A stretch of 64,000 bases of DNA, taken from NCBI GenBank assembly GCA_021162935.1, contig JAGGXR010000052.1, positions 56,631-120,630 of the forward strand. Reading direction: 5' to 3'. The translations under genes were made by a program, and so were the position numbers. Below the pieces are notes generated by a model. That model was not told the DNA's origin. It was given only the letters and a program-made list of their open reading frames with translations, and did not search any database. The stretch's first letter is position 1. Each line of letters starts with the position of its first letter. The stretch comes from Deltaproteobacteria bacterium. Its GTDB lineage: Bacteria; Myxococcota_A; Polyangia; HGW-17; SLPX01. Of the stretch, positions 4,168 to 46,467 are shown piece after piece.

Positions 4168-4244
4168 GTAGAGGCTCGCCCGCACGAACACACCTTCAAC
4201 GATCGAGCATGGAGGCAGGGAACATGAGCGACGACGTGATCCGT

Positions 4245-8751: not shown

Positions 8752-9621
8752 CTACATGGGCTCCTGAAAGGTGCCGGTCCCAGACGACGTCTGACCTTCC
8801 ATTCCAGCCGATTCGGTGACCTGACGTTTGAGATTCCTCAGCCGAATGGCCAAAATCGTCACCAAGAACCCTAGAATCAACAGCCCAACCAGGGCGGCAA
8901 TCGCCACAACCTTGAGGGTTTGGCCAGAAGACTCCACGGGAGTCGCTTCGATCTTGCTGGCTGCAGTTCCCTGCTGGACGAGGACGCTCACGTTCTTGGA
9001 ATCCAGTCCGGCCACCGATCCTGCTACCAAGGACTGAATGGCTGCAAGCGACGCGGGCGTCTTACCCGCCTCCACCTTGAGATACACCGACGCCTTGGGT
9101 TGTGGCTTGGGCGCCTCGGGGTCGGCAAGGGGCGAACGCCGCGGCACCACGAGGTGCACGCGGGCATCGAGAACCCCGTCCATCCGCTTGAGGGTCTTGG
9201 ACAACTCACCCGACATGGCATAGACCATCTTGATGTGTTCTTCGGTCGAGGTGGGCACGAGGCCCGAACCACCGAACACCTCGCCGACGCCCTTGTCCTT
9301 GGGTCTGGGAAGATTCTCGATCAGGAGCACATCAAAGGCCTTGGACGCCTGCTTCACCGGCACGGTGATGGTGAACGCCGGTTTGCGGCCTTTTTCCTTG
9401 ACCTTGGTCGCCTCGATCCCCGCCTTGCGCAGCTTGAACACGATCAGATTCGCCTGTCGCTCGTCCAGGCCATGTTGGATCTCCGTGCCGCCGCAACCGG
9501 CAAACACACCGATGCCGGCAACCATGACCCAAAACGCCAGCCCAATGGGCAGCCAACGATGGAACTTTACGGTCCCAGCAGCGAACAGGCCACGATCGGC
9601 CCCGGACTCGGCAGCAATCAT
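8752..9621 (-). CDS. sctJ: Type III secretion inner-membrane ring lipoprotein, SctJ (YscJ/EscJ/PrgK family)
   Basis: Lipoprotein signal with lipobox (…GIGVFAGC). The mature N-terminus GGTEIQHGLDERQANLIVFKLRKAGIEA… and the second domain …DVLLIENLPRPK…EEHIKMVYAMSGELSKTLKRMDGVLDARVHLVVP align by eye with EscJ/PrgK. A C-terminal TM helix is present (VVAIAALVGLLILGFLVTILAI). Length ~290 aa, so SctJ rather than FliF. The track ORF (500 aa, 8752-10254) carries a spurious upstream extension. Confidence 0.75.
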   Translation of the reverse strand: MIAAESGADRGLFAAGTVKFHRWLPIGLAFWVMVAGIGVFAGCGGTEIQHGLDERQANLIVFKLRKAGIEATKVKEKGRKPAFTITVPVKQASKAFDVLLIENLPRPKDKGVGEVFGGSGLVPTSTEEHIKMVYAMSGELSKTLKRMDGVLDARVHLVVPRRSPLADPEAPKPQPKASVYLKVEAGKTPASLAAIQSLVAGSVAGLDSKNVSVLVQQGTAASKIEATPVESSGQTLKVVAIAALVGLLILGFLVTILAIRLRNLKRQVTESAGMEGQTSSGTGTFQEPM

Positions 9622-9821
9622 CACGACCCTTCTCCTGTCTTGCGCCCTCTTGTCTTGCGCCCTCTCCTGCCACAACGCACCCAAGGCCGATTTCTTAGCG
9701 AAAGACCGCACCCCTGGCAAGGACAATAGATGAATCCAACAGATATACCGGTCGTCCGGCTGGCTACCCGCCAACCGGACGGCCGACTGCCGACACGGGT
9801 CTCCCGGCCGTCGTTCGGTCG

Positions 9822-10247
9822 CTACATCCTGGTCTGGAGCAACTGGCGCACGGCCTGATTCGCCCGGTCGATGCTCTTCGAAAACAGGTCCATCTGCTGG
9901 GTGTACCGATACACGCTTACCTGGAGAGAAATCACCTGGTTGATGTCCAACGATCCCCGCATGGCCCGCCTGATATAGTGGTCCAGCTTGCGTTCGTCCT
10001 TCATCAAGCCTTCGACCTGCCTGCGAAGCAGGCCTGGTCCCTCCGGCTTGTCTGGCTTCGTTGCTCTCTGGGCGGCCTCTGGCCCGGTCGGGCCTTGCTG
10101 GGACACGACGCGACCGAACTCGGACTGGGCGCCGCCCTGCTCCGGCCTGATGGGGCCAACGAACCCAGGGCCATCGCCCATGGGCCCTCCTATCCTTTTC
10201 TTGGCTGCCACGTTTCCTGCGCCGCCTTGCACAGCACCAATTTTCAT
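9822..10247 (-). CDS. T3SS inner-rod/needle family protein (SctI-like; SctF not excluded)
   Basis: 141 aa with a Gly/Pro-rich N-terminus and a C-terminal segment …INQVISLQVSVYRYTQQMDLFSKSIDRANQAVRQLLQTRM that resembles the conserved C-terminal helix of SctI/SctF proteins. It sits immediately upstream of sctJ, the canonical sctI-sctJ order. GGAGGTG Shine-Dalgarno 6 nt before the ATG. Confidence 0.4.
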   Translation of the reverse strand: MKIGAVQGGAGNVAAKKRIGGPMGDGPGFVGPIRPEQGGAQSEFGRVVSQQGPTGPEAAQRATKPDKPEGPGLLRRQVEGLMKDERKLDHYIRRAMRGSLDINQVISLQVSVYRYTQQMDLFSKSIDRANQAVRQLLQTRM

Positions 10248-10502
10248 GAAACACCTCCGCGTCCTTGAAGAACGACCCCAGGCAACAAACCCGCTCCAGG
10301 CCGTTCTCTTTTCAGTTCACGCCCCCGATTGTCGACACGACAACCAAGGTTGTTGCGAAAAATCTGGTGGGAGAGTGAACGCTTCGGAAAAAAACGCGTT
10401 TTCTGGAAAAAACGATGCGAGGCGTGGAAATTCGCTCAGGGCGGGAAGGCCTTTCCACATCACAAAGATTGGAACGGATCCCGCGGCTGGCCGAAGGCCA
10501 CG

Positions 10503-11189
10503 TCACGAGGTGTTGACGACCTCCTGAAGCATCTTGATGGCACGGCCGTGGAGCCTACTCGCCCAGGACCGACTCAGCCCCATCTCCTTCCCCGCCTCGG
10601 CCAACGACTTATCCTTGAAATAGGACAACTCGATGATGCTGCGCTCCGACTCGGGCAGCGACTCGACCGCACGACGGACCACGTCGAACAATTCCACGTC
10701 TTCGACCTGGTCATAAACGGATCCAACGGACGCATCGGCGCTCTGTTCCACCGTCTCGGCCGCAAAGGCCAAGACCTCCATGGTCGCCAGGTTCGCCACC
10801 CGGTCTGCAAAGTTGGACAATGCATCTTCAAGGGCTCCGCCTGGTTGTCCGCCCTGGCCCTCTGATTCCAGGTATGAATCCACCCGTTCCTCACGCTGGA
10901 CCTTGTGCACCCTGGTCCGCGCCAGCACGCCCATGGATCGCAATCCGTCAAAAATCGCCCCGCGAATCCGATAGTACGCAAACGTGGAAAATGCGATGCC
11001 GCGCCGTGGATCATAGCGTTGAGCGGCAACCACGAGTCCTTGGTTGGCCAGGGCGACGGCCTCGTCGGTCAGGTCCTGATTCAGCCGAAGCATCCTGGCC
11101 GTCTTGATCGCAATCGACTTGGCCAGGCCCATGTGGCCCTCTATCAGGCTGTTTGCTCCTGCCGGAAGTCCTGAATCGACCATCGCCAT
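10503..11189 (-). CDS. Sigma-70 family RNA polymerase sigma factor, FliA/WhiG (sigma-28) type
   Basis: Region 2 (…VVAAQRYDPRRGIAFSTFAYYRIRGAIFDGLRS…) and region 4.2 HTH (…LPESERSIIELSYFKDKSLAEAGKEMGLSRSWASRLHGRAIKMLQ) are present. Length ~228 aa from Met at 11189 (MAMVDSG…). The track ORF begins 33 codons further upstream. Confidence 0.7.
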   Translation of the reverse strand: MAMVDSGLPAGANSLIEGHMGLAKSIAIKTARMLRLNQDLTDEAVALANQGLVVAAQRYDPRRGIAFSTFAYYRIRGAIFDGLRSMGVLARTRVHKVQREERVDSYLESEGQGGQPGGALEDALSNFADRVANLATMEVLAFAAETVEQSADASVGSVYDQVEDVELFDVVRRAVESLPESERSIIELSYFKDKSLAEAGKEMGLSRSWASRLHGRAIKMLQEVVNTS

Positions 11190-21100: not shown

Positions 21101-21262
21101 CCCTCGCGCAATTCCTGGTGACCGTCTTCCTGCCACGAAGCGGCCATCAATTCTGTCTGTTTCACTTGCATAAGGGCTGTTTTTCCTTCAAAACAGCCTT
21201 CTACTGTGTATGATGACAGGCTAACTTCGTGTGAAACAAACTCTATTTCCAAAAGAGCGTTC

Positions 21263-24200
21263 ATGGAACGGTACGGTCGATTCATCTACAAACATGCCTT
21301 TGGAATCGTGGTTGCATTCCTCGCGATATCCGCGGCGACCATTTGGATTGGAGTCAACCCTGGCTCCGAAGACGACGTCCTGCGTTTTCTGCCCAAATCG
21401 AACCCTCAGGTCGGATTCTTCTATGACGTGAATCAAAAATTCGGCGCCCTCCACGTCGCCATGGTCGGAATCGAAGCCAAGGATGTGTTCACGAAGGAAT
21501 TCATCACGCGCCTCGGACGAACGACCCAATACCTTCAAGACGAAGTCAAAGGTGTCCACCGGGTGCTGAGCCTGACCAGTGTGGCGGACTTCAGCCTCAT
21601 CAAGGGAAAAGAAGGGGGGCTGCAAACCGGCCAACTCATCGACACGCAACACCTCCCCAAAACGCAGGAAGGCTGGAAGGTGCTCCGTACGAGAGTCATG
21701 TCCAAGCGACACATCGTCGGCCAATTCGTCAATCGGTCGGGAACCGCCGCGGTCATCTTGTGCTTCCTGTCGCCCAAGGGCAACGTGAACAACATCGTCC
21801 AACGAGTCAAGAAGGCGGTGCGAAAAAACTTTCCCAGCTCCAAGATCTATTGGGGGGGCACGCCCTTCATATCGTCCTATATTTTCGCCGTGACGGAAAG
21901 GGACCTGCGGCGGCTGACCCCGTGGGCAGTGGCGGTCATCGTGGTCATCACACTCCTCGTCTTCCGGGACCCGGTGGGCGTGCTGCTCGCATTCGTGGCC
22001 ACCATCTTCGGCGGCCTCGTCGCCTTCTCCGCCATGAAGCTCACTGGCGAAAAACTGAACTTGGTCTTGGGGTCCATGCCGGTCATCCTATTCGCCGTGG
22101 GAAGTGCCTACGGCATTCATTATTTGGTGCGCTACTACCACCTTCGCAAGGACCACTCCACCGAGGCAGCCGTGGCAGGAGCCTTCCGCGAAGTCGGCCC
22201 GGCGATCCTGGCGGCTGGACTGACCACCATGGCCGGCTTCCTCTCCTTCCTCGCCATGGACGTGGACCCCATGCGCAAATTTGGCATCTTCACGGCCCTG
22301 GGGATCGGGGCGGCCCTGCTCGCAGCACTTGCCGTGGTGCCCGCCATCCTCGCTTTGACGGGGCGCACCAGGAAGGAAGTCGATGCGGATAGTTGGCTCA
22401 AACACGCCATGGGGTCCGGATCCGCCTGGGCACAACAACACCGATGGCTCGTGATCCTCATCCTCGTAAGCGGTGGCACCGTTGGCTTCTACTATTCCCT
22501 TCGGGTCAAGCTGGCCGTCGAGACATCGTCCTTCTTCACAAAAGGAAGTGAGCCGGACCTGGCCGACCACTTCTTTCACGACCAATTCGGCGGATCCATC
22601 TACACGCAGCTCTACATCAAGGCCGACCTAGACGACCCCACCGTGCTGCGGGAGATTCGACGCATCTCGGAGATCATCGAGAAACAGAAACTGGTGTCCA
22701 CGGTCCAAAGCGTGGCCATTCCATACAGCCTGGTCAACGAGGCCATGGTGGAGCTGCACCGCATCCCGGACCAACGCAAGCAGGTGCAGACCCTGGCCTC
22801 CTACGTGCTGTCGGATCCCTCGTCGCGGCAGCTCATGACCATGAACCGTAAGGAAGCCCTCGTGCACATCAAGGTGACCACGAGTGAGGCGGAACGGATC
22901 AACCGCTTCATCGCGACGGTTCGCCGCATTCTGAAGAAGGAAGTCGCTCCGTTCTACGTGGCAGTGAATCTGACGGCATCCACACCCGTCAAAGAGAAGC
23001 GAATTGCGGAAAAGGCGCTGGCAGCGCAGACAACAGACCATCTGTTGGCCATCTTGTTGCGATCGGGCGTGACCCTGCCGGCTGAGGCAAGGACGAACCT
23101 GGCCCGAAACCTCAATCGTGCGCTCGCACAGGGCCGCTTCCATGCGACGAAGGCCGATGTCGAGACCGTGGCCAACAAAGTGCGCCGCTATCTCCGGTCG
23201 AAGGAGTGCGTGCTCGCTCTGCCTGCCCCAGGCCCCAAAGGCGATCCGGCCAAGGCCCTGGCGGCTGCCTTGGCGAACCTTGGCCCCGCGGCCAAGGACG
23301 ATGCCAAAGACGATGCAGGCGCCAAGGCCCTGGCGGGCGTGGTGTCCAAGGAGGATGCTTTGACTCTGGTGGCCACAGCGGACCCATACTTGGCGGATGC
23401 ATGGAAACTCCAGGAAAGCAAGAGCCTGGTCCATGCGGCCCTCCAATCCGTGGGCCTGACCCGGTCACGAATCTCCAAAACCGTGCAGAAACAGATCCGC
23501 GTGGCCCTGCTCGATCTCAAAGTACGCCGGGTCGCCGTTCCTGGATCGGTGGCGACCAAGGCCGGCATCATCGGCGAAAAAATTCCCATGCACGTGGTCC
23601 TGACGGGCATGCCTGTCCTCTACCAGGGCATGTCGAAATCGGTCCAGGCAAACCAGATCAAGAGCCTGATCATCTCAGGCATCCTGGTGCTCCTCGTGAT
23701 CGGGCTCGTCTTTCGGTCGGTACGAGCTGCCCTGGTGGGCATCCTGCCCGCAGGCATGACCCTCATGATGCTCTTCGGCTTCATGGGCTTCAAAGGTCTG
23801 TATCTGGATATGAGCACCTCGATGATTGCCTCCATCGCCCTAGGGACCGGCATCGACTATGCCATCCATTATCTCGTCTGGTGGAGGCGACATGCGAGGG
23901 CATCAGCAGGGAAACCGGTTGCCGCGGCCCTCCAGGACGCTTCGGTGGGCGCATCCCATGAGGCCGGCACCGCCATCCTGGCAAACGCGTTGATGGTGGC
24001 GGCTGCTTTCCTCATGCTCACCATGGGAGACGCAGCCCCGCTCAAGACTTTTGGGGCGATGACCGCCACCGCCATGCTCGGAGCGGCCGTTGCCACGTTC
24101 CTGGCCGTACCGGCCCTGGCAGGAAGCGATCTGATCCGTCACTGGGCATGGGTGGGACTCGATCGAAAAACAATATCCGGACATGACGACCACGGAAACG

Positions 24201-24316
24201 GACGCATCGCCTCGGACGACGGGCCTGCGTCGAAAAACGAGTCAAGCAACGAACGACACCGAGACGCCGGTGCTGCAGACCGCAGCACCGATGTGACAAA
24301 GGAGACGGAGTCATGA
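21263..24316 (+). CDS. MMPL / RND-superfamily exporter (two 6-TM bundles with large periplasmic domains)
   Basis: ~1017 aa from MERYGRFIYKHAFGIVVAFLAISA…. Two sterol-sensing/MMPL-type TM bundles (…AVAVIVVITLLVF…LAFVATIFGGLVAF… and …IISGILVLLVIGLVF…MTLMMLFGFMGF…) separated by a ~300-aa soluble region. Confidence 0.8.
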   Translation: MERYGRFIYKHAFGIVVAFLAISAATIWIGVNPGSEDDVLRFLPKSNPQVGFFYDVNQKFGALHVAMVGIEAKDVFTKEFITRLGRTTQYLQDEVKGVHRVLSLTSVADFSLIKGKEGGLQTGQLIDTQHLPKTQEGWKVLRTRVMSKRHIVGQFVNRSGTAAVILCFLSPKGNVNNIVQRVKKAVRKNFPSSKIYWGGTPFISSYIFAVTERDLRRLTPWAVAVIVVITLLVFRDPVGVLLAFVATIFGGLVAFSAMKLTGEKLNLVLGSMPVILFAVGSAYGIHYLVRYYHLRKDHSTEAAVAGAFREVGPAILAAGLTTMAGFLSFLAMDVDPMRKFGIFTALGIGAALLAALAVVPAILALTGRTRKEVDADSWLKHAMGSGSAWAQQHRWLVILILVSGGTVGFYYSLRVKLAVETSSFFTKGSEPDLADHFFHDQFGGSIYTQLYIKADLDDPTVLREIRRISEIIEKQKLVSTVQSVAIPYSLVNEAMVELHRIPDQRKQVQTLASYVLSDPSSRQLMTMNRKEALVHIKVTTSEAERINRFIATVRRILKKEVAPFYVAVNLTASTPVKEKRIAEKALAAQTTDHLLAILLRSGVTLPAEARTNLARNLNRALAQGRFHATKADVETVANKVRRYLRSKECVLALPAPGPKGDPAKALAAALANLGPAAKDDAKDDAGAKALAGVVSKEDALTLVATADPYLADAWKLQESKSLVHAALQSVGLTRSRISKTVQKQIRVALLDLKVRRVAVPGSVATKAGIIGEKIPMHVVLTGMPVLYQGMSKSVQANQIKSLIISGILVLLVIGLVFRSVRAALVGILPAGMTLMMLFGFMGFKGLYLDMSTSMIASIALGTGIDYAIHYLVWWRRHARASAGKPVAAALQDASVGASHEAGTAILANALMVAAAFLMLTMGDAAPLKTFGAMTATAMLGAAVATFLAVPALAGSDLIRHWAWVGLDRKTISGHDDHGNGRIASDDGPASKNESSNERHRDAGAADRSTDVTKETES

Positions 24317-25080
24317 GAAATTCACCGTTCACCATCAAGGCCGGCCTGACCGTGGGTTTGCTGGCCATGCTGCTGGCAGCTGCTCCGGCCAAAGCGAACC
24401 CCCAGGGGGAAAAGGTCATCCGACTCGTGGAGCAGGCCTTTTTGTCCTACAAGGACCAGTTCGGCAAATACAAGTATTTGATCAAAAACCGAGGCGGCGA
24501 CAAGATCATCAAGTTCACCCTATACAACAAGGGAACGAAGCGGCTCATCAAATTCACATACCCAGGAGACGTCCGAGGCCAGATGGTACTCATGCAGAGC
24601 AAGGACGAGATGTACATCTACCTGCCCGCCTATCGCCGAGTGCGCCGGCTCGCGGGCCACGTCCGCAACCAGGGATTCATGGGTTCCGACTTAAGCCTCG
24701 ACGACATGAGCATTGGGAGCTGGTCGAAGGACTACACCACGACCCTGGTCAAGCAGGACGCAAAGTACTGGTATCTCTCCCTGAAAAAGAAGGCGGGCCG
24801 CAACCCTCCCTATCCCAGACTCAAGATGCGGGTCCTCAAGAAGATCCACGAAGCCGACAAAATTGAATACATGAGCCGGTCGGGCCGAGCCCTGCGAACC
24901 CAGACCTTGACGGGTTGGTACTGCCAGGGCAACAGCATCATGTGTGCCGCCAAGACCATTTTGATGATCGACCATCGCCGGGGCAACCACAAGACCTACC
25001 TCTACGAGGTGGAGAGCCGCTTCAACGTGGGTATCTCGAACCGCAAATTCACGATTCGCTACCTCATGCGAGGCGGCTGA
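24313..25080 (+). CDS. Outer-membrane lipoprotein-sorting (LolA-like) protein, partner of the MMPL transporter
   Basis: Signal peptide MRNSPFTIKAGLTVGLLAMLLAAAPAKA. Size and pattern (…FLSYKDQFGKYKYLIKNRGGDKIIKFTLYNKG…MVLMQSKDEMYIYLP…) match LolA-like proteins that commonly follow MMPL genes. Start overlaps the MMPL stop (ATGA). Confidence 0.6.
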   Translation: MRNSPFTIKAGLTVGLLAMLLAAAPAKANPQGEKVIRLVEQAFLSYKDQFGKYKYLIKNRGGDKIIKFTLYNKGTKRLIKFTYPGDVRGQMVLMQSKDEMYIYLPAYRRVRRLAGHVRNQGFMGSDLSLDDMSIGSWSKDYTTTLVKQDAKYWYLSLKKKAGRNPPYPRLKMRVLKKIHEADKIEYMSRSGRALRTQTLTGWYCQGNSIMCAAKTILMIDHRRGNHKTYLYEVESRFNVGISNRKFTIRYLMRGG

Positions 25081-25231
25081 TTTCGAGAATGGATGAACCA
25101 ACGACCCGGACCATGGCGGTCGAGTTCCCGATGGAATCACGAACATCGCGAAACCATCTGCCAAGGACAAGGGCGAACAAGGGTCCCATAACTCTGCCAT
25201 AATCCCCAAACCAACCAGGGAAGGTTCTGCC

Positions 25232-27037
25232 ATGAAATGCAGCACGACAATGTGGACGGCGATCCTGATCGCCTCAATGGCATGGGCGAAAACCGCACAA
25301 GCGCAGATTGAAAAGTCCTGGACCGTGTCCATTCAGTCGGACGTGCGCTACGTGGTGCAGGAAAAGTCCACCAAGGAACTGATTCCAGCCGCCGACTTCG
25401 TGAAATATCCCTATCTGGCAGGCCACAAATATCGCAAGCTCATCTTGGTGCCCACGGGATTTTCGCGAAACGAAAACATCCTACACGTCCGTCTGAGCGC
25501 CGAGACCGACAAACTCAAAGGAGTAGCCGAAGTGGACTTCGTCTGGCTCGGCTACAGCCGGGAAGCGCAGGTCCTCCAAGACCTGACCAAACGGGAAAAG
25601 CTCCTGCCGTTCCGGCTGGAATCGAACGCCCTGTATCTCGACGTGAACGGCTTCATCTTCAAAAACCTCGACCTCCGCATCGGCCAACAGGTCATCTCGT
25701 GGGGCACGGCGGACCAGTTCAACCCGACCTCCAACCTGAACCCGCTCGATCTGGAAGACCCACTCTTGTTCGGCGAACATATGGGCGTCCCGGCGATCCG
25801 CATGGACTACGCCGTCTCGGACGACTGGACGGCGACCCTGGCCTGGGTGCCAATCTTCTTTCCTGACAACCTCCCTGCCACCGCGCCCATCGGTCTGGCC
25901 TCGCCCGACCGAATCCCAGTTCTGGACCAGAAGATGCGGTGGCAGTTCGCCGTGGATCGAGGGCTGGGCGAACTCTTGGCGAACGGTCCCACCAGGGTCA
26001 CCGAGGCCAACCTGGAAAAACCGCCCATGAACATCGGCAACTCCCAGGTGGGATTCCGCATCCGGGGCAAAATCTTCGAGCAGGACATCTCGCTCTCCTA
26101 TTACTACGGTCGTAGCGGCATGCCCCAACCGTCGGTGTCACGCGCCTTCTTCAGGCAAGATGCGAACTACATCGACACCAGGGTCAACCTCATGTATCCA
26201 CGGATGCACGTCGCGGGCCTATCTATGGCCGGCCAAATCCCATGGGCCAAGGCATTGATGAAGAAGAACCCAAAGCTCAAACCCGTGGGCTGGTGGTTCG
26301 AGGCCGCTGCCTTCTTCCCCCAAAAAATCACCATGGGAATCTACCAAAACGACTTCCCTATCGTGGGCACGGGTGAATACGATTATGAAGGCGACGGCGT
26401 CCAGGGAGGCAACCGTCCGACCATCGTGGACACCACGCCATTTTTGAAGTGGACCCTTGGATTCGACTACTCCTTTTCGAACCATTGGTACGCCAATGTC
26501 CAATGGGTCCACGGCTTCCCCGACGAATTCGGTGCAGGCGGATGGCTCTCCAACCTGTGGAGCAAACAGAAGGGCATGGTTGTGGGCAAGTCGTATCTCG
26601 ACTTCGACTACAACGACGACGGCCACAACGACACGGACATCCTGAGTTGCTATGGCTCGGGCCAGCAGGGCCGATGCGTCCACGAAATCGTTCGCCCGAG
26701 ACTCGGCGACTACATCGTGGGCGGCGTGGACTTCAAGTTCAAGAATCAGTCCATGCTCATGCGCCTCTTCTTCATCTTGGACATGAGCGGCTCCTACGAA
26801 CAGTACTGGAAGGGCTCTGCCGACGGCTCCACCGGGAAGCGTGTCAGCGTCTGGCATAACCCCTTTAGTGCCAAAGGCTTTTCCGCCATCATCTACCCAC
26901 AATTTACCTGGGCCGTCGCCGAAGGCGCCGAACTCTCCATCGGCGGTTTCCTCGCTTTGGGCAAGAGCTACAGCCGATTCGGTGACCCTGCCGTGGGCAG
27001 TTCGATGGTCTGGACACGAGGCAAGTTCACGTTCTGA
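25232..27037 (+). CDS. Putative outer-membrane beta-barrel protein (DUF1302-like) in the MMPL/LolA-like cluster
   Basis: Signal peptide MKCSTTMWTAILIASMAWAKTAQA. 601 aa with alternating amphipathic segments, rich in aromatic/Gly residues. Same strand as, and immediately downstream of, the MMPL and LolA-like genes. Confidence 0.45.
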   Translation: MKCSTTMWTAILIASMAWAKTAQAQIEKSWTVSIQSDVRYVVQEKSTKELIPAADFVKYPYLAGHKYRKLILVPTGFSRNENILHVRLSAETDKLKGVAEVDFVWLGYSREAQVLQDLTKREKLLPFRLESNALYLDVNGFIFKNLDLRIGQQVISWGTADQFNPTSNLNPLDLEDPLLFGEHMGVPAIRMDYAVSDDWTATLAWVPIFFPDNLPATAPIGLASPDRIPVLDQKMRWQFAVDRGLGELLANGPTRVTEANLEKPPMNIGNSQVGFRIRGKIFEQDISLSYYYGRSGMPQPSVSRAFFRQDANYIDTRVNLMYPRMHVAGLSMAGQIPWAKALMKKNPKLKPVGWWFEAAAFFPQKITMGIYQNDFPIVGTGEYDYEGDGVQGGNRPTIVDTTPFLKWTLGFDYSFSNHWYANVQWVHGFPDEFGAGGWLSNLWSKQKGMVVGKSYLDFDYNDDGHNDTDILSCYGSGQQGRCVHEIVRPRLGDYIVGGVDFKFKNQSMLMRLFFILDMSGSYEQYWKGSADGSTGKRVSVWHNPFSAKGFSAIIYPQFTWAVAEGAELSIGGFLALGKSYSRFGDPAVGSSMVWTRGKFTF

Positions 27038-32110: not shown

Positions 32111-33802
32111 TCATCTATGTGAGCGTGGCCTCATCCGAAGGTGGGTCCGCCCCCTGGTTCGGGCCGATCTTCGACCTCTGGTGCGGCCTCTCGTGCGGCC
32201 ACGGAGCCGTCCCCTGGTCCGTCGGGCGTTTGTCCGACTGTGGCCGGCTCGCGCCTCGCGCTTCTTCCGCTCGGCTTCCATCCGTTGCTTCCGCTTCGCC
32301 TTGGCCCGCCCAATCCGCCGATCGAGCCTCCCGAGGGCCGCTTCAATCACATCACCTGCCGGCATGACCACCGGATGGGTGACCGTCATAGAGGCCAACC
32401 GTTCCACGAGAGGCACGGTCATGCGACGGAACGCCCCCATCTCCCGAGCAGGAATACCAGGAGCCCGGATCGCCTTGAATTTGAGCGGGTCCACGTACTC
32501 GCCGTTCACCTTGATCCCGAAGTGGAGATGCGGCCCGGTTGATCTACCCGTCGAGCCCACGTACCCGATGACCTGCCTCTGACGCACCGTGACGCCCTTC
32601 TTGATCCCGCGAGCGAACCGAAGCAGGTGCATGTACACGGTCGTAATGTTGCTCTCGTGCTCGACCACGACCATATTCCCTGCCGCCCGGTTTCTGGCTG
32701 CAAAGGCCACTTCACCGTCGGCGGCCGCCCAAACTGGGGTGCCCGATGGCGCAGCAAAGTCCACGCCGAGGTGCGCTCGGTATCGGTGCAGGATCGGATG
32801 GAATCGATGCCGGTTGAACTTCGAAGTGATCTTGGTGTAACGAAGCGGGGTCTTGATGATATTGCGCCGAAGGGAACGTCCACGCTGGTCGAAATATCCC
32901 GTTCTCCCCGATGCGGTCTGGTACCAAACTGCCGTGCTCCGCTTCGTCTTCCCCTCGTACCTGGCGGCAAGGAGACGTCCGTACCGGTAGAAGGAACCGT
33001 CGAGATACTCTTTCTCCAACACGAGTTTGATGATGTCGCCCTTGTGGAGATCCGTGTAGAAGTTAAGGTCCCAGGACAGAGCGCGGATGATGAGGCCGGC
33101 GACCGTGGGCTTTTCCCCAGATTTGCGCACCGAGGCATACAACGGCCCGGTGACCGGAACCCCCACGAGCACGATGCGACGCTCGATGGGCTTCGCCGAC
33201 CGCTCGGCCACAAGCCGGTCGCCCACGCGACGGACGAGATACACCACGGCCGGAGCCGCCCGAAACTCAAACTCGAACACGTGCTTGCCGTCACCGCTGA
33301 CACGAACAGTGAAGGTCTGCCCGGGGCGAGCCCTTCTGAAATTATAAAGAGGAGCCAAGGTGCCGACGATCCGGTCGGTCAGGTGTCGGGTCAGACCAAG
33401 TCGCTTGAACGCCGTGTACAGATTGTCGCCACGCCGGATCTTGCCGGACAGGACGCGGCTGTCCATGTCCGATAGGTCGCCATCCACATGGCTCGTCCCA
33501 TGCTGTGCCCCGCCCACGAGTGCGGCGGGAACGTCCAGATCCACCGGCGACTTTCCGCGTTTACGAAACCGCGCCGCCGCCCCGGCGTGTTTCACCGACC
33601 CGACGACCGCTCTCTTACGGACCTTGACGAATGACTTCCGCCCCCAGACGAACACCCAGAGATTCACCAACACGAGCACCGAAAACACACCAACCACGAT
33701 GAGCTTGACGCGCGTATTCCGAGCCGTCTTACCACGGGTTTTCGGAATCTTCGGTAGTCTGAGTCGGCCATGCCGTCGTGCTGTTCGCCGATTGTACTTC
33801 AT
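32111..33802 (-). CDS. M23-family peptidoglycan metalloendopeptidase with N-terminal TM anchor and Arg-rich C-terminal tail
   Basis: …HLGVDFAAPSGTPVWAAADGEVAFAARNRAAGNMVVVEHESNITTVYMHLLRFARGIKKGVTVRQRQVIGYVGSTGRSTGPHLHFGIKVNGEYVDP carries the HxxxD…HxH M23 motifs. The C-terminal RGRTRGRTRGRR tail comes from a short GC-rich repeat. Confidence 0.85.
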   Translation of the reverse strand: MKYNRRTARRHGRLRLPKIPKTRGKTARNTRVKLIVVGVFSVLVLVNLWVFVWGRKSFVKVRKRAVVGSVKHAGAAARFRKRGKSPVDLDVPAALVGGAQHGTSHVDGDLSDMDSRVLSGKIRRGDNLYTAFKRLGLTRHLTDRIVGTLAPLYNFRRARPGQTFTVRVSGDGKHVFEFEFRAAPAVVYLVRRVGDRLVAERSAKPIERRIVLVGVPVTGPLYASVRKSGEKPTVAGLIIRALSWDLNFYTDLHKGDIIKLVLEKEYLDGSFYRYGRLLAARYEGKTKRSTAVWYQTASGRTGYFDQRGRSLRRNIIKTPLRYTKITSKFNRHRFHPILHRYRAHLGVDFAAPSGTPVWAAADGEVAFAARNRAAGNMVVVEHESNITTVYMHLLRFARGIKKGVTVRQRQVIGYVGSTGRSTGPHLHFGIKVNGEYVDPLKFKAIRAPGIPAREMGAFRRMTVPLVERLASMTVTHPVVMPAGDVIEAALGRLDRRIGRAKAKRKQRMEAERKKREARAGHSRTNARRTRGRLRGRTRGRTRGRRSARTRGRTHLRMRPRSHR

Positions 33803-36425: not shown

Positions 36426-38126
36426 CTACGACCCAGAACGACCTTTCAGGTTCCGCAAGAGGGCCTCCACGGATGACCGATCTGCATCTGTTCGCCCCCC
36501 CAGCAAGCGCATGTAGGTTTCCAAAAAACGCTTGGATCGCTGTCGCTCACGCAGCCTCAAAGCCGCCAATCCAGCCCATTTCCATGGCTCCGGCTCATTC
36601 GGCGCACGGCGCGATGCCTTCTTCGCGGCACGAAGCGCCAAAGCTGCATTCTTGTATTGCTTGATGAGGACCGCCGCCAGGAACACGTTGCCGTAGTAGT
36701 TGTTCGGCCGCTGCTTCAGCACCGCCCTGGCCCGCTGTTCCACCGCGCCAAACCGACCTGCAATCAGCAGGGCCCTGGTCCCTTTCAAAACCTTGGGCAG
36801 TCGCCCCTTGCCCACCGCCGCACGTGGTACCGTCCTGCGAACCAAGGGAAGCAACCGGACCGGACGGGCGCCAGCCCTTGCCCTGCTGGGACGGCGAGAC
36901 TTGACCACAGAAGGCACCCATCCGGATCCGCCTCGACTCGCAGCTGCCGGCTTCCTGACACTCAGGCCCAACAGACTCGGCCGGCCTGACCGACCCCGTC
37001 CGCTCTTGCGGACGTGGACCATGGCGGGGAGCCGGGCCTCGACCTGCTTCGCACGAACGAGCAGTTTCGCCGCCTCATCGGGCTTTCCCATGCTCTTGAG
37101 CAACGAAGCTCCGATCCGCAGGGACTTCGCACTCAACCGTCCATCCAAAGCGATATGGAGATGGAAGGCCGCGTCCTCACGTCGCCCCCGGTTCCACAAA
37201 AGAGATGCCAGGTGCATTCGTCCATCGTTGAATCGCTCCACACGCCGCAAGCCGAGCTTGAGCACCATCTGTGCTCCTGCAAGGTCCCCTGCCCTCTCGA
37301 GCACCTCGCTGAGCACCAGATAAGGCAAACCGACCCGAGGCCAGGAGCCCATGGTCTTGCGGAGCATCCGTTCCGCCCGCGCGCGGTCTCCGTTGTCGAG
37401 CACAGACAGCGCTGCAGCAACCGCCTTTCTGACCACAGCCACACCCGACGGCTCCCTGGCTTTCCCGACCGAACTTCGGGGACCTGTCCGCCTCGCCTTC
37501 AGCGCCTTTTCGAGCAGAGCCAGCCGAGTCCCTGCTCTCACAACCCACTGTCTGGCCCAGGATCGTCGCTCCAAGCTCACGTATCGGGACAGAGCCTCGG
37601 CCGCCTTGGCGTCCTTGCCAAGCGCCTGGTAGGACAAACCGAGGCCAAAAAGTGGACTCGGGTCCGTGGGGGCCAACCGAAGCGCCCGACGCGCCGCAAC
37701 AATCGAAGCACCGTGCTTGCCCTGGCCACGCAGGGCCGTGGCCAGGCAGTACCAGTACCACGCCCGTTTCGGATACTTCCTAACCATCTTCGCGTAGAAA
37801 ACCTCGGCCTTGCGATGCTGGTTGAGATGAAAATAGAGAGGCCCGATTCGAACGGCAGCCCACTGGGGGTCGACCGCAGCCACCCTCTCGTAGGCCCGAA
37901 CGGCGCGAGAAAAATCCTGTTTGAGCAGGGCTGCTTTGGCTTCCTGTTTCCAATTTTGGACGGGAGGAACTTTCGCAGCAGAACGCGCACGTTCATGCTT
38001 GGGCGCATCTGCAGCCAAGGCGGACGTCGGGCCCGTCGCCATCACCCACGCCGCGACGACGAACCAAACGGCACAGGATGTCACCTGTCGATTGAACCTC
38101 ATTCTGCTCCATCCATGCACCTTCAT
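36426..38126 (-). CDS. Secreted tetratricopeptide-repeat (TPR) protein, co-operonic with the hybrid kinase
   Basis: Signal peptide (…VVAAWVMATGPTSALAADA) and multiple TPR-like helices (…AVRAYERVAAVDPQWAAV…, …WYCLATALRGQGKHGASIVAARRALRLAPTDPSPLFGLGLSYQALG…). Its stop lies 5 bp from the kinase ORF. Confidence 0.75.
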   Translation of the reverse strand: MKVHGWSRMRFNRQVTSCAVWFVVAAWVMATGPTSALAADAPKHERARSAAKVPPVQNWKQEAKAALLKQDFSRAVRAYERVAAVDPQWAAVRIGPLYFHLNQHRKAEVFYAKMVRKYPKRAWYWYCLATALRGQGKHGASIVAARRALRLAPTDPSPLFGLGLSYQALGKDAKAAEALSRYVSLERRSWARQWVVRAGTRLALLEKALKARRTGPRSSVGKAREPSGVAVVRKAVAAALSVLDNGDRARAERMLRKTMGSWPRVGLPYLVLSEVLERAGDLAGAQMVLKLGLRRVERFNDGRMHLASLLWNRGRREDAAFHLHIALDGRLSAKSLRIGASLLKSMGKPDEAAKLLVRAKQVEARLPAMVHVRKSGRGRSGRPSLLGLSVRKPAAASRGGSGWVPSVVKSRRPSRARAGARPVRLLPLVRRTVPRAAVGKGRLPKVLKGTRALLIAGRFGAVEQRARAVLKQRPNNYYGNVFLAAVLIKQYKNAALALRAAKKASRRAPNEPEPWKWAGLAALRLRERQRSKRFLETYMRLLGGRTDADRSSVEALLRNLKGRSGS

Positions 38127-42103: not shown

Positions 42104-43438
42104 TCAACGACACTGAAGATGGGGGTCGAAGCGTCGGTGGCATTTAAGACAGGTCCGCCGATTCCTCTTCACGAGCATGCGGCAACGACGCGAATGGGCG
42201 AATCCAGGCCCGTGGGGGTTCCATCCATAGCCGCCCACGCCTCGACTCGCATGACACCGGATACAGGTGGACTGCCGGTGACAGCTCACACAGGAACCGA
42301 GATTTCGACGGGCATGGATGGCATGCCGGTTGTGCGCCAGACTCCGACTGGCAGCCGAAGCCCAATTCGGTGGATGGAAATGAGCACGACGTCGGAATCG
42401 GTCGGCAGGGTGATCCGAGGTCACGTGCATTCTCCGGTGGCAGTCCAAACAGAAGCGCTGCTTGGTGTGACAGGCCTGGCACCTGCCGGGATGCGCCCGG
42501 GCATCCGACCCGTGGCGCAGCACATAGTTCCCCGGATGGATGCTCAGGACCTTGCGCTGCCCGGCGTGACACTTGAGGCAGGTGCTCTGCTCGTGGCAGG
42601 ACTGACAGGTCCGCTGGCGACTGCGGGCCGCTGCCCCATGGTGGCGCCGGAAGGTCGGTCCATGCTCGAGGAGGCCCAGACTGGCACCGGGCTTGAGGGT
42701 CCCGCGAGAAAAGTGCACACGTAAATGTCGACTATCGCGGCGTTCGTGGCAGGTGGTGCATTCGCTGGCCACCCGCCGCCTACGGTGACAACTCACGCAA
42801 GTCGCCATCTTGGGAACATGCCGCCCGCCCAGGCGGGTTTGGCCGGCCACTCCCCCATGACAGGTCGTACAGGACGCCCCGCTTTGCGTCACGTGCAAGT
42901 GATGTGGGAAGCGAATATGCGATTTCGGGTATAGGGTGGGTCTAGGAAAACCATTGGCATAATAGGACTGATGACACTTGGAACAAGTCTTGTGGCTGCG
43001 ATGCCCGGCCCTGCCGAATCCTTTGGGGATCACGGCCTCGGCATGACAGGTCGTGCAGGACGCCATCGAAACGGTCATCCGACCCGCCTTCTCCTTGTGA
43101 CAGCGCGTGCAGGCGAGGTGCATCGTGCCCACATGCAGGGCATGGTTGAATCGCAGACGGATCGTCGGCCTGGGAAACACGATGGGCGACGGGACGGCCC
43201 TGCCCCGTCTCGATGACGGGCGAGCCGGCCTGCGAGCCCACCGCAAGGCAGATCGCCGATCCCGCCGCACGACCGCTGTCGAAGCACCTCGATTCGGGCT
43301 CTTGCGCCGAGCAGGCGCAGAGGCGGGACCGGACAGGGCCACCATGGACACGAACGACAGCCCAACGACGAATGTCGGCGCCAACCACCACAGCGTCCGA
43401 GACGACCTCGGTGCCATCGAGATGCTCACCACAGCCAT
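42104..43438 (-). CDS. Putative multiheme c-type cytochrome (13 CxxCH motifs), unusually Arg/His-rich
   Basis: Signal-like N-terminus MAVVSISMAPRSSRTLWWLAPTFVVGLSFVSMVALSGPASA. Thirteen heme-binding motifs: CTRCH, CTTCH, CSKCH, CTTCH, CVSCH, CTTCH, CQSCH, CLKCH, CQACH, CLDCH, CVSCH, CIRCH, CLKCH. The gene overlaps the 3' end of the upstream beta-barrel gene. Confidence 0.6.
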   Translation of the reverse strand: MAVVSISMAPRSSRTLWWLAPTFVVGLSFVSMVALSGPASAPARRKSPNRGASTAVVRRDRRSALRWARRPARPSSRRGRAVPSPIVFPRPTIRLRFNHALHVGTMHLACTRCHKEKAGRMTVSMASCTTCHAEAVIPKGFGRAGHRSHKTCSKCHQSYYANGFPRPTLYPKSHIRFPHHLHVTQSGASCTTCHGGVAGQTRLGGRHVPKMATCVSCHRRRRVASECTTCHERRDSRHLRVHFSRGTLKPGASLGLLEHGPTFRRHHGAAARSRQRTCQSCHEQSTCLKCHAGQRKVLSIHPGNYVLRHGSDARAHPGRCQACHTKQRFCLDCHRRMHVTSDHPADRFRRRAHFHPPNWASAASRSLAHNRHAIHARRNLGSCVSCHRQSTCIRCHASRGVGGYGWNPHGPGFAHSRRCRMLVKRNRRTCLKCHRRFDPHLQCR

Positions 43439-45069
43439 CCTTTCCCACAGGTTCCCGTGCTGCACCAGTTCATCTGGAACATGGCGTAGAGACGCACGTC
43501 CGCCTTGTAAAACTCGCCGAAATTGTCCTCCACGATGAATCGGACCGAAAACCTCGGATGGAACCTCCAAAGGGCACCGGTGGCCACGCCGGCGGTGACC
43601 CCGTGCAACTGCTCCGACAGGTCGTCCGCCCAATGGATCACGGTGAGTCTCCCCTGCCAACTCAATCGGGGTCCCAAAATCTGATACTGCCAGGCCATAT
43701 CCACGCCCAGGGTCCTGCCCCCGTAACCCTCTTGCCAGTACCAGTCGACCCGCCCAGACAGGCTGTGGCCCCAATACTGGACACCGAGTCCGCCGCCCGG
43801 ACTCGGCTGCACCTTCTTGCGCTCAGCCGCACTATAGCCCTGATCGTCACCACCCTGAAACAGGCGCAGAGACGCACGCGCGTAGCCGCTCCAGGATTTT
43901 GCGATGCGCAGTTCATACCACAGCCGCGCTTCGGAGAAAGGCTGCACGTTGAACACATTGAAAATGGAATTTCCATCGAAGTCCGGTTCGTGCCGTGCGT
44001 ATTCGGCCGATATGGAATGTCGGCCCAAAATCACCTTCACCCCGGCCAGCGTCCTGGCCAGCCTGTCCGTCATGACACTGTAGGCCAACCCCAGATACGG
44101 AGTCACCCGATCGTTCCACAAACGGGCCGACAGCCAACCGGTGACCCGCTCTTCGGCCGTCGCCGTCTCGTCCAACAAACCATTGGGCTGATTCCCGTCG
44201 GGCCATGTGTAGATGGGGGCCGTGGGTGCCCGGTTTCTGAGCACGGAAAAGGACCGTCGGTAGGCCACGCGTCCATTCAGATACTTCCAATCCGAAAACA
44301 GACCCACGCCGAACATCGGCTGCCACGAAGCTGGCTCCTGCACGGTATCCGTCCCGTCCAACAAATAAATGGGCGCATCGATGGGCAGCGCTCCATCCAC
44401 CCGACGGCCCCCGAACAGGTTGATCCCCACGTGGTACGGACTCTTGATGCGTACGTCGATGCCGTCATACTGATACGCGTCCATGGCGCTCCATCGAAAC
44501 TGACGGCCCAACTTGAGTTCGAGCCAGCCACCCATGAGCCCGGTCACGCCCAAGTATCCGTACAGAAGCTGGAACACCGGGCCGGCATCCAAGTCCTGGG
44601 TGAGCAGGAACGGGTCCTTGCCCGACGAGGAAAAATTTCCAAGATCCGCATCCAGCCGAAAGGCCACCGACAGGTACATCTGCGGGTGCACCTTCCGCCT
44701 GGCCACCGGGTCCTTCGGCTCGGGCAGGATGTCGTACACATAAAGTTGGAAAAAGGTCTCGACCCTGCGCCGATTGAGCAAGCGACCATCCAGATCACGA
44801 AGCTGATACCCCTGCCCAGTCAGGTCCGCAGACACGAACGCCTCGTAGGCCGACGCCGACTCAGACCAACCCATTGCCGCCACGCCTCCGGCAAGGATCA
44901 GAGCCCATCCGGGCGCACTCTGTCGCCCGAGCGCCCTGCCCGACGAAAACACATCCGACCCGCTCCTATCGATGCGTTCGGAAAACCACCGAAAGCGACG
45001 ACGAAGAGACAAAACCGCACGCAGGGCTCGTCGAACCAAGGAGGCGAACCTGTGACCGGCGCATTGCAT
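43426..45069 (-). CDS. Outer-membrane beta-barrel protein (porin-like), co-operonic with the multiheme cytochrome
   Basis: Signal peptide (…WALILAGGVAAMGWSESASA) and ~500 aa of alternating amphipathic strands rich in Tyr/Trp/Gly (…YLSVAFRLDADLG…, …FQLLYGYLGVTGLMGGWLELKLGRQFRW…, …GWLSARLWNDRVTPYLGLAYSVM…, …RFSVRFIVEDNFGEFYKADVRLYAMF…). The track ORF carries a spurious extension to 45906 that overlaps the PLD gene. Confidence 0.6.
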   Translation of the reverse strand: MQCAGHRFASLVRRALRAVLSLRRRFRWFSERIDRSGSDVFSSGRALGRQSAPGWALILAGGVAAMGWSESASAYEAFVSADLTGQGYQLRDLDGRLLNRRRVETFFQLYVYDILPEPKDPVARRKVHPQMYLSVAFRLDADLGNFSSSGKDPFLLTQDLDAGPVFQLLYGYLGVTGLMGGWLELKLGRQFRWSAMDAYQYDGIDVRIKSPYHVGINLFGGRRVDGALPIDAPIYLLDGTDTVQEPASWQPMFGVGLFSDWKYLNGRVAYRRSFSVLRNRAPTAPIYTWPDGNQPNGLLDETATAEERVTGWLSARLWNDRVTPYLGLAYSVMTDRLARTLAGVKVILGRHSISAEYARHEPDFDGNSIFNVFNVQPFSEARLWYELRIAKSWSGYARASLRLFQGGDDQGYSAAERKKVQPSPGGGLGVQYWGHSLSGRVDWYWQEGYGGRTLGVDMAWQYQILGPRLSWQGRLTVIHWADDLSEQLHGVTAGVATGALWRFHPRFSVRFIVEDNFGEFYKADVRLYAMFQMNWCSTGTCGKGWLW

Positions 45070-45234
45070 GACCGAAGTGTGAGTCAAGCGGACAGAAGCT
45101 GTCAAGCTTCGAAGGAACCGATGAAGGCGCGCAATCACGGCCTGGACAAAACACCAGTCTGCGACTACAACCCTCAAGGCCTCGCGCCAATGTGATAGGA
45201 AGCAGCAAGGCGAGCAATCGATTTTGTGAGGACC

Positions 45235-46467
45235 ATGGTCGAACGCGCAAAAACCAATCAACTTCCCGTGCGGATCCTGGAAAATGGAAGACAGGCCTTC
45301 GACCGGATCCTGGAGCATATCAATCAGGCAAAACACAGCATCGACATGCAGTGTTTCGTGTGGCGTGACGACAAAACCGGAAACCTCATGGCGCGCCGCA
45401 TCCTGGATGCGGCGGACCGCGGCGTCCAGGTGACCATCCGGAAGGACCGAGTCGGAGCGGTGTACGAGCACTTCGACCCGAACGGATACAGCTTCTTCCA
45501 CAAGCGTCTCAGACCGGTGGAGCGATTCAACGTCGAATTCCTCCTTTTTGCCTACCGTCGCGGGCGCACGGTCAAAAAGCAGTACCCGAACCCGCTGGCC
45601 CAGCGGATGGTCGACCACCCGAACATCACGCTCCACATCGACCGACAGCTCTTCGACCACTCCAAGTTCTTCATCTTCGACGATACGACCATGATCATCG
45701 GCGGCATGGGCATCGGCGATGATTTCCGCAGCAAATGGATGGACCTCATGGTCGAACTCCCGGGGGCCGAGCACATCCATCGGTTCGAATCGCACCGTAC
45801 GGACCCGAGGCCGCCCAGTGACCACCGCCCCATCGACTTCGTGGTGAATGCCGTTCTCCCCGATGGAACGAAACGATTCGATGTCTTGCGCCGACGACAG
45901 GAACAATTCGCCCGGACACGAAAGTCACTCGTCATCGAAATGGCCTACCTGGGCGACCCAAGGATGACCGATATCCTCGTGGCTCTGCTCCGGCGCGGGG
46001 TCCAGATCACTGTGCTCCTCTCGACCCATGCAAACATCCTCCACGACCAAAACATCTGGGTCCTCGACGAGCTGTATCGACGCAGCGGCGCCCCGGATCG
46101 GCTGGAGGTCTACTTGTATCCGAACATGGTCCACACGAAGCTCCTCATTTGGGATGAAACGGTGGCCCAAATCGGTTCAAGCAACCTGACCCGCCTGTCC
46201 CACCACGGCTATGAGGAGACGGACCTGTGGATCACGGACCAGGCCACGGTGAGCCGACTTTCGGCGCTGATCATAGAACACAAGAAAACCTGTGTCCAGG
46301 TCAGCTACCCGATAGCGTACAGTCCGTTCAATTGCCTGGTGGAACGCATCCTCCAATTTCGGCACAGCAACACACCGATGGATCACCGACCTTCCGAAGC
46401 TCCCCAGGCACTCGACGTGCAAGCGCCCTCGGAAACAAACCAAGAATCGCAAACACCGACTTTCTGA
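45235..46467 (+). CDS. Phospholipase D-family protein (cardiolipin synthase-like; two HKD motifs)
   Basis: HxKxxxxD motifs: …HSKFFIFDD… and …HTKLLIWDE…VAQIGSSNL…. Confidence 0.8.
   Translation: MVERAKTNQLPVRILENGRQAFDRILEHINQAKHSIDMQCFVWRDDKTGNLMARRILDAADRGVQVTIRKDRVGAVYEHFDPNGYSFFHKRLRPVERFNVEFLLFAYRRGRTVKKQYPNPLAQRMVDHPNITLHIDRQLFDHSKFFIFDDTTMIIGGMGIGDDFRSKWMDLMVELPGAEHIHRFESHRTDPRPPSDHRPIDFVVNAVLPDGTKRFDVLRRRQEQFARTRKSLVIEMAYLGDPRMTDILVALLRRGVQITVLLSTHANILHDQNIWVLDELYRRSGAPDRLEVYLYPNMVHTKLLIWDETVAQIGSSNLTRLSHHGYEETDLWITDQATVSRLSALIIEHKKTCVQVSYPIAYSPFNCLVERILQFRHSNTPMDHRPSEAPQALDVQAPSETNQESQTPTF

Follow-up and report, generated by a model that had tools for sequence, protein, structure and literature searches.

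A two-gene locus in a Myxococcota genome

The 64,000-nucleotide stretch of DNA analysed here, hereafter the window, comes from contig JAGGXR010000052.1 (positions 56,631 to 120,630) of the Deltaproteobacteria bacterium assembly GCA_021162935.1, which is placed among the Polyangia. Between positions 42104 and 45069, its minus strand carries two open reading frames (ORFs), a gene for an outer-membrane beta-barrel protein followed by a gene for a c-type cytochrome with 13 heme-binding motifs, which overlap by 4-13 nt. We consider it probable that the pair is a minimal two-component porin-cytochrome conduit of the Pcc kind, in which the cytochrome would occupy a plug-free barrel and carry electrons between periplasm and cell exterior. 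We infer this function from synteny, predicted fold, and analogy. The features of the locus are as follows.

43426..44952, minus strand: outer-membrane beta-barrel gene, 508 aa; GenBank MCD6497879.1, 'hypothetical protein'; modelled with 22 strands and no plug
44848..44952, minus strand: barrel signal peptide, MFSSGRALGRQSAPGWALILAGGVAAMGWSESASA and then YEAF; read from the sequence (...SESASA / YEAF)
43951..43986, minus strand: motif P323-D-F-D-G-N-S-I-F-N-V-F334, the best-conserved element of the barrel, in the loop that joins strands 13 and 14 of the model
42104..43429, minus strand: 13-heme c-type cytochrome gene, 441 aa; GenBank MCD6497878.1, 'hypothetical protein'; pI 11.7
43328..43429, minus strand: N-terminal hydrophobic export segment of the cytochrome, RTLWWLAPTFVVGLSFVSMVALSGPASAPA; read from the sequence
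43187..43327, minus strand: Arg-rich low-complexity linker of ~47 residues, net charge +14, 30% Arg; missing in most homologues
42137..43111, minus strand: heme-binding core with 13 CxxCH motifs, from motif and conservation analysis
43426..43438, minus strand: gene junction, with the barrel stop TGA (43428-43426) overlapping the cytochrome start (GTGA with GTG 43429; 13 nt with ATG 43438)
44953..45069, minus strand: upstream in-frame extension from ATG 45069, giving an Arg-rich non-homologous N-terminus, with no Shine-Dalgarno sequence before 45069

Both ORFs are real genes. An out-of-frame artefact is ruled out by the many homologues and invariant columns of both, and long antisense ORFs such as 43213-45195 (plus strand) are by-products of the high G+C content. 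The barrel gene probably begins at GTG 44952, which has AGGAG 10 nt upstream, opens a standard signal peptide, and agrees with the NCBI model. An earlier note on this DNA, made from the letters alone, had described a barrel protein of ~547 amino acids with a signal peptide; the signal peptide and the barrel-like composition stand, and the length is corrected to ~508 amino acids. In most full-length homologues, too, the start coincides with that of the signal peptide or lies slightly ahead of it, with a few models extending further N-terminally and several truncated. The segment upstream of GTG 44952 is probably a non-coding 5ˊ untranslated leader.

The cytochrome ORF ends at 42104 and has two candidate starts, ATG 43438 (444 aa) and GTG 43429 (441 aa), the second of which is used in both the NCBI and JGI models. 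With either start, the product matches the secreted protein of ~445 amino acids and 13 CxxCH motifs that had been noted earlier. GGAAAGG is found upstream of the cytochrome start, and the overlap of the two reading frames suggests that translation of barrel and cytochrome is coupled. At the corresponding junction in homologous loci, the genes overlap by 4 nt or abut (L001, L007, L008) or are separated by gaps of 14-41 nt. A promoter and terminator scan gave no signal above background.

Barrel and cytochrome genes are inherited together

A word-indexed search with the barrel protein returned 20 homologues, and an exhaustive profile search returned 956 clusters at E <= 0.001, of which 232 reach E <= 1e-30. 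None of the barrel homologues has a Pfam domain or an informative name; every one is called 'hypothetical protein'. A further word-indexed search with a broader barrel alignment added six new proteins, none of which has an informative name or comes from a cultured organism, and the barrel cluster members that were looked up are metagenomic only. For the cytochrome there are 42 homologues. Exactly 13 CxxCH motifs are present in 22 of the 24 closest, and the other two, with 11 and 9, are short and appear to be truncated gene models.

To survey gene order, a signature-peptide scan of one genome per species was used, which identified 465 genomes with a relative of the barrel. The loci analysed are the best 80 of these 465. 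All 80 carriers are metagenome-assembled genomes (MAGs), labelled Myxococcota, Myxococcales, Polyangia, Haliangiales, Kofleriaceae, Nannocystaceae, or with generic delta- or proteobacterial names. Enough downstream DNA for a test of pairing is available at 76 of the 80 loci. In 75 of these 76, the barrel gene is directly followed by a same-strand ORF with 11-13 CxxCH motifs, so the gene logic of a porin-cytochrome conduit that the earlier note had read from the window alone is borne out across the family. The distance from the barrel stop codon to the first CxxCH is 38-132 codons (median 71; 81 loci), which leaves space for an export signal and a linker and nothing more. In addition, the pairwise identities of barrels and cytochromes are strongly correlated (r = 0.95, n = 78), and the flanking genes vary between the loci whose gene tables were examined. 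Even cytochromes that are only ~35% identical are still preceded by barrels, which align to the barrel profile in hhalign at 99.9% and 99.2% probability. Barrel and cytochrome are a fixed, obligate module in uncultured Myxococcota.

One apparent cytochrome-less barrel, P0020 (L005/L006), proved to be followed by a complete 13-CxxCH ORF at 9425-10774 that the gene caller had missed and broken into short fragments, so members of the family can easily escape automated annotation. The single true orphan is the barrel at 3361-5118 of locus L016, whose surroundings (a histidine-kinase fragment and an opposite-strand CcmF gene) mirror those of L001. From the sequence, it looks as if the cytochrome and adjacent genes at this locus were deleted or were lost by misassembly.

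In part of the basic clade described below, genes for CcmF/CcsA-like maturation proteins and two-component regulators lie within a few kb of the barrel at both L001 (2220-2915 and 14965-17523, both minus strand) and L016 (7151-9814, minus strand). No cytochrome c maturation genes or two-component regulators of this kind are present in the window.

The barrel protein lacks a plug and a known family

The composition of the barrel protein (G 11.2%, Y 5.1%, W 4.1%, F 4.7%) is typical of outer-membrane proteins, and its mature N-terminus falls at the same conserved A-[YF]-[ED] position in homologues P0001-P0020. AlphaFold2 with the family alignment predicts a 22-strand barrel (pLDDT 74, pTM 0.69) in which strand 1 begins right at the N-terminus of the mature chain and no plug is formed. 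Every long, low-confidence loop of the model connects an odd-numbered strand to the next even-numbered one; with a periplasmic N-terminus, these loops would face the outside of the cell.

Searches of Pfam and NCBIfam with the barrel gave zero matches, and there is no match among PDB sequences, MtrB included, even at E <= 10. Foldseek with the model returned generic barrels only, all with TM < 0.5. The top matches are FimD ushers (TM 0.43-0.45), and the substrate-specific porins Occ/OprD, AlgE, and the sucrose porin are also found. Two types of known barrel protein can be ruled out. A TonB-dependent transporter such as FhuA is rejected by the lack of a plug, a TonB box, and any Pfam TonB_dep_Rec or Plug match, with an identity of only 8%. 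A fused cytochrome-porin of the Cyc2 type is rejected because the barrel has no CxxCH motif and the cytochrome is encoded by a separate gene. That the barrel might belong to a well-known, unrelated outer-membrane family is likewise countered by the lack of any family match together with the retention of its cytochrome partner.

The family signature of the barrel, PxFDG[DN]SIFNxF (residues 323-334), lies in a loop rather than a strand and is modelled with pLDDT below 50. P323, F325, S329, I330, and F334 are invariant in alignment A1; in alignment A3, this still holds for P323, I330, and F334, and almost holds for F325 and S329. The loop would correspond to extracellular loop L7 if the N-terminus is periplasmic. 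Because its high conservation coincides with low confidence in the monomer model, we consider this loop a candidate contact with a partner protein.

The cytochrome carries 13 invariant heme motifs

There are exactly 13 CxxCH motifs and zero variant motifs in the cytochrome, compared with a chance expectation of ~0.16 from its own composition (R 15.3%, H 9.2% with 41 His, D+E 2.9%). The first cysteines of the motifs, in the numbering of the 444-aa form, are residues 110, 128, 152, 190, 214, 227, 278, 287, 320, 330, 383, 392, and 430. Hemes 1-6 form a module like those of ActA and c7 cytochromes, hemes 7-12 are arranged as three close pairs of CxxCH motifs, and one further heme follows. All 13 motifs are conserved at 100% among 74 non-redundant cytochromes, a degree of conservation that also disposes of the concern that the CxxCH-rich frame might be spurious.

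Outside the motifs, the same 74 sequences share 11 histidines conserved at 100% (residues 99, 102, 179, 182, 259, 267, 301, 309, 355, 372, and 409), along with Cys419 (100%), Met211, and Cys443 (both 99%). A count of heme motifs against distal ligands, which the earlier note had recommended, gives 12 conserved candidates (11 His and Met211) for 13 hemes and leaves one heme short of a conserved sixth ligand. Judging from their conservation, Cys419 and Cys443 could form a disulfide or be the source of the missing ligand. Heme density over the 360-residue core is ~28 residues per heme. For comparison, MtrA has ~33 residues per heme.

Pfam models matched by the cytochrome are Cytochrome_C7 (7e-11), the MtrC/MtrF domain II/IV (30.1 bits, against a cutoff of 30), and Cytochrom_CIII. 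The best PDB matches of the family profile are the pentaheme ActA subunits 8k9e_A (1.4e-17), 6lod_A, 6btm_A, and 6f0k_A, followed more weakly by high-molecular-weight cytochromes, MtrF (9e-8), c7 cytochromes, and MtrA (6r2q_A, 1.6e-6). All of these matches are confined to approximately positions 38-203 of the profile, which is the N-terminal part of the core. The AlphaFold2 model of the cytochrome is poor (overall pLDDT 57, and below 50 over residues 1-84), and a Foldseek search with it gave 6f0k_A as the sole match. Members of the family have N-terminal export signals and no lipobox, and in the more distant homologues these are clear cleavable signal peptides. The corresponding segment in the window could be a Sec signal peptide or could stay in place as an uncleaved anchor; its cleavage is uncertain because the hydrophobic stretch is long and is followed by the 47-residue Arg-rich linker.

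The heme that is short of a conserved distal ligand could be an open catalytic site, which brings in a different arrangement of the same two proteins. The barrel might be a diffusion porin for a soluble redox substrate (Fe(II), Mn(II), chelated metals, sulfur species, or quinone-like organics), and the cytochrome a wholly periplasmic 13-heme enzyme or relay. The presence of substrate-specific porins among the generic structural matches fits such an arrangement, as does the fact that most loci encode no outer-surface cytochrome. However, a plug-free 22-strand barrel would be far wider than the 16-18-strand substrate-specific porins, and the one-to-one pairing, the start/stop overlap, and the co-divergence of the two proteins are tighter than is usual for a porin and an enzyme. 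Moreover, the cytochrome has no match to the catalytic multiheme families NrfA and HAO beyond the level of heme motifs. We regard this explanation as unlikely.

Comparison with known porin-cytochrome systems

The earlier note had likened the pair to conduits of the MtrAB and Omb-Oma-Omc types. This likeness holds in general terms, and the closest counterpart is the two-gene form of Pcc. In Anaeromyxobacter and Ca. Kuenenia, two-gene pcc clusters encode a porin and a 12-14-heme cytochrome without an outer-membrane cytochrome, and it has been proposed that the cytochrome spans the membrane unaided (Shi et al. 2014, PMC4245776). The pair shares with these clusters a porin-like gene beside that of one multiheme cytochrome, with no outer-membrane cytochrome gene, and its host phylum, Myxococcota, is also that of Anaeromyxobacter. 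The 22 strands predicted for the barrel are within the 18-22 predicted for Pcc porins, the 13 hemes are within the range of 5-14 in the Pcc definition, and an export signal is present (PMC4245776). Unlike the Anaeromyxobacter and Kuenenia proteins of 338-344 aa, the cytochromes described here have ~380-445 aa and exactly 13 invariant hemes. No Anaeromyxobacter protein is among the named matches, and the carriers identified belong to Polyangia, Haliangiales, Kofleriaceae, Nannocystaceae, and unclassified MAGs. In operational terms, that is by gene order, strand number, and heme number, the pair can be classed as a two-gene Pcc cluster.

Distant relatives of the cytochrome (26-29% identity over 70-77% of the query length) are encoded directly after porin-like genes and among further multiheme cytochromes, and two of them, P0052 and P0057, sit in Pcc-like clusters. 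Locus L089 encodes a porin-like protein, then a 12-heme cytochrome, and then a 12-heme lipoprotein, which is the Omb-Oma-Omc arrangement of Geobacter. At locus L090, genes for two large cytochromes are grouped with those for a porin-like protein and a 14-heme cytochrome. This porin-like protein aligns to the barrel profile in hhalign at 93.6% probability, with the signature motif still recognisable, and is the only sequence link between the barrel and a Pcc-like porin, whereas the L089 counterpart gives a non-significant 4.7%. The order of porin and then cytochrome is also that of OmbB-OmaB-OmcB in Geobacter sulfurreducens, whose barrel is of similar size (~20-22 strands), but the pair has no OmcB-like lipoprotein cytochrome and has 13 hemes instead of 8.

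With MtrAB(C) of Shewanella (6R2Q), PioAB, and MtoAB, the pair would share a working principle by analogy, in which a heme-dense, rod-like cytochrome is threaded through a large barrel. As in PioAB and MtoAB, the module consists of two genes that are adjacent and co-inherited. It differs from MtrAB in the predicted number of strands (22 versus 26 in 6R2Q), in the number of hemes (13 versus 10), and in gene order, with the barrel gene first where MtrAB has the reverse. Neither protein matches the MtrB/PioB or DmsE/MtrA families in Pfam or NCBIfam, and 6r2q_A gives only a local 30-bit match. These libraries presumably hold models for MtrB_PioB, for the decaheme-associated outer-membrane protein, and for DmsE/MtrA. 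Membership of the MtrAB/PioAB/MtoAB family is ruled out by the lack of a family-model match and by strand and heme numbers.

The best match in both sequence and structure is between the N-terminal heme module of the cytochrome and ActA of Alternative Complex III (8K9E, 6LOD, 6BTM, 6F0K). Only ~135 residues, corresponding to 5-6 hemes, are matched. Unlike ActA, the cytochrome has seven more hemes and a barrel partner, and it is not part of an act operon (actABCDEF).

Our literature searches found no description of this barrel-cytochrome family. Many novel, unclassified clusters of multiheme cytochromes have been reported from Myxococcota MAGs (preprint 10.1101/2022.03.26.485925), and new porin-cytochrome architectures from other phyla (bioRxiv preprint 10.64898/2026.05.27.727921). 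The concept of such a conduit is already known and will not surprise a specialist; the family itself is undescribed in the literature found.

Extreme positive charge is a trait of one clade

The window cytochrome (15% Arg and 9% His) is indeed unusually basic, as had been pointed out from its sequence, but this property does not extend to most of its relatives, which are near neutral. The net charge of the cytochrome core (R+K-D-E) is 0 to +18 in most orthologues and +33 to +70 in the window (+53) and at L001/L002, L009, L010, L011, L012, L013, L023, L047, L082, and L088. Most of the strongly basic cytochromes fall in one clade, in which the barrels share at least 38% identity with that of the window, and within the protein set a pI of at least 10.4 is limited to P0021-P0029. 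Extreme positive charge is a trait of one clade and not of the whole family. Compensation of this charge by the barrel is ruled out by the poor correlation between the two (r = 0.26).

Other exported or envelope proteins encoded in the window are also very basic, whereas cytoplasmic ones such as EF-G are acidic. Three of the former are listed here.

32111-33802, minus strand: M23 peptidase with a C-terminal RGR/RTRG-repeat tail, pI 11.8
36426-38126, minus strand: TPR protein, pI 11.7
24313-25080, plus strand: LolA-like protein, pI 10.2

These proteins suggest that a basic envelope proteome is lineage-wide in the source organism. At L001, the adjacent exported proteins are acidic and the cytochrome is still strongly basic, so an explanation of the basicity as a purely genome-wide trait is only partly true. 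The positive charge may raise heme potentials or aid docking to anionic partners. Strongly acidic lipoprotein multiheme cytochromes are encoded near three pairs of the basic clade: at L012 (2384-4555, 13 hemes, net -60; directly upstream of the barrel), at L011 (513-2387, 10 hemes, net -47), and at L001 (692-1384, minus strand, 8 hemes, pI 5.3). Their sequences suggest that they may be charge-complementary outer docking partners of the basic cytochromes. Such lipoprotein outer-membrane cytochromes are found only near these three loci, with none within ~5 kb on either side in most related loci, and no acidic lipoprotein cytochrome partner is encoded in the 64-kb window.

The uncompensated charge of the basic clade, the predicted disorder of the Arg-rich linker in the window protein, and the FimD ushers at the head of the structural matches could also be accommodated by a dedicated secretion pair. 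The barrel would then be an usher-like or two-partner-like translocator that exports the cytochrome, and in the basic clade the charge would bind the protein to anionic surfaces, matrix, or minerals. The TM values of the FimD matches are low, however, and domain searches and the model reveal no POTRA, plug, or usher accessory domains in the barrel. The near-neutral charge of most members also argues against charge-based surface binding as a family-wide function. To our knowledge, folded holo-cytochromes are not substrates of simple barrel translocators. We consider a secretion pair most improbable.

A proposed route for electrons across the outer membrane

A porin-cytochrome conduit, which we favour as the probable function of the pair, would operate in the following way. 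Both proteins would be exported by Sec, and the cytochrome would receive its 13 hemes in the periplasm from the Ccm system. The barrel would enter the outer membrane as a plug-free structure of 22 strands, and its lumen would be filled by the thin, heme-dense cytochrome. A continuous chain of mostly bis-His hemes could then link the periplasm to the cell exterior, with the ActA-like N-terminal six-heme module as the likely point of electron entry from the periplasm. Compared with the 10 hemes of MtrA, a chain of 13 could be long enough to protrude on both sides of the membrane, which would make a separate outer-membrane cytochrome unnecessary. The parts of this scheme that we infer are the placement of the cytochrome inside the barrel, the transfer of electrons through the membrane and its direction, and the role of the pair in physiology.

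Genomic neighbourhood of the pair

In the window, the pair is isolated, as had been observed earlier. A PLD/cardiolipin-synthase-like gene (45226-46467, plus strand) is divergent from the barrel gene, an ABC1/UbiB kinase gene (plus strand, ending at 42072) is convergent with the cytochrome gene, and the CxxCH motif is absent from all other ORFs of 150 aa or more in the 64 kb. There are no respiratory genes, actB-F included, beside the pair.

Flanks that are free of respiratory genes and vary freely between loci might be expected of a device that buffers, detoxifies, or senses redox compounds in the envelope of otherwise aerobic Myxococcota and conserves no energy. Sensor kinases are close by in some loci, and carriers are mostly Polyangia-type lineages of soil and sediment. 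The cultured relatives of these lineages are aerobes. Such a role would involve the same molecular mechanism as the conduit and would differ from it in physiological purpose alone, and a 13-heme chain would be costly if it were purely protective. We think it quite unlikely that the pair has a non-respiratory function of this kind.

Elsewhere in the window, positions 21206-27037 (plus strand) encode an MMPL/RND-type transporter, the LolA-like protein listed above, and a DUF1302 outer-membrane protein. This cluster is an envelope module for handling lipids or lipoproteins and is unrelated to the barrel-cytochrome pair.

Implications for the Myxococcota

If its proposed function is correct, the pair would be among the simplest outer-membrane electron conduits, consisting of two genes only. 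Its exact heme count is conserved across hundreds of uncultured Myxococcota species of soil, peat, freshwater, and marine sediment, none of which is now counted as electroactive. The barrel-cytochrome family has no Pfam or NCBIfam model and is missed by annotation built on those libraries; a profile for the pair would bring Myxococcota into surveys of extracellular electron transfer. Bioelectronic engineering would also gain a compact part in a module of two genes, and a scaffold that occurs naturally in both a near-neutral and a strongly basic form offers a comparison of charge tuning in a heme wire.

A broader and more speculative reading, which we offer tentatively and consider rather doubtful, is that uncultured Polyangia-type Myxococcota, with at least 465 species genomes, use this two-protein wire as their standard means of extracellular electron transfer. 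A single 13-heme cytochrome would combine the roles of acceptor in the periplasm, relay through the membrane, and terminal site outside, and one clade would have been re-tuned by a charge swing of ~+50 for high potential, electron uptake, or docking to acidic surface cytochromes. If this were true, electroactivity would be widespread in a phylum seen as one of aerobic predators and decomposers.

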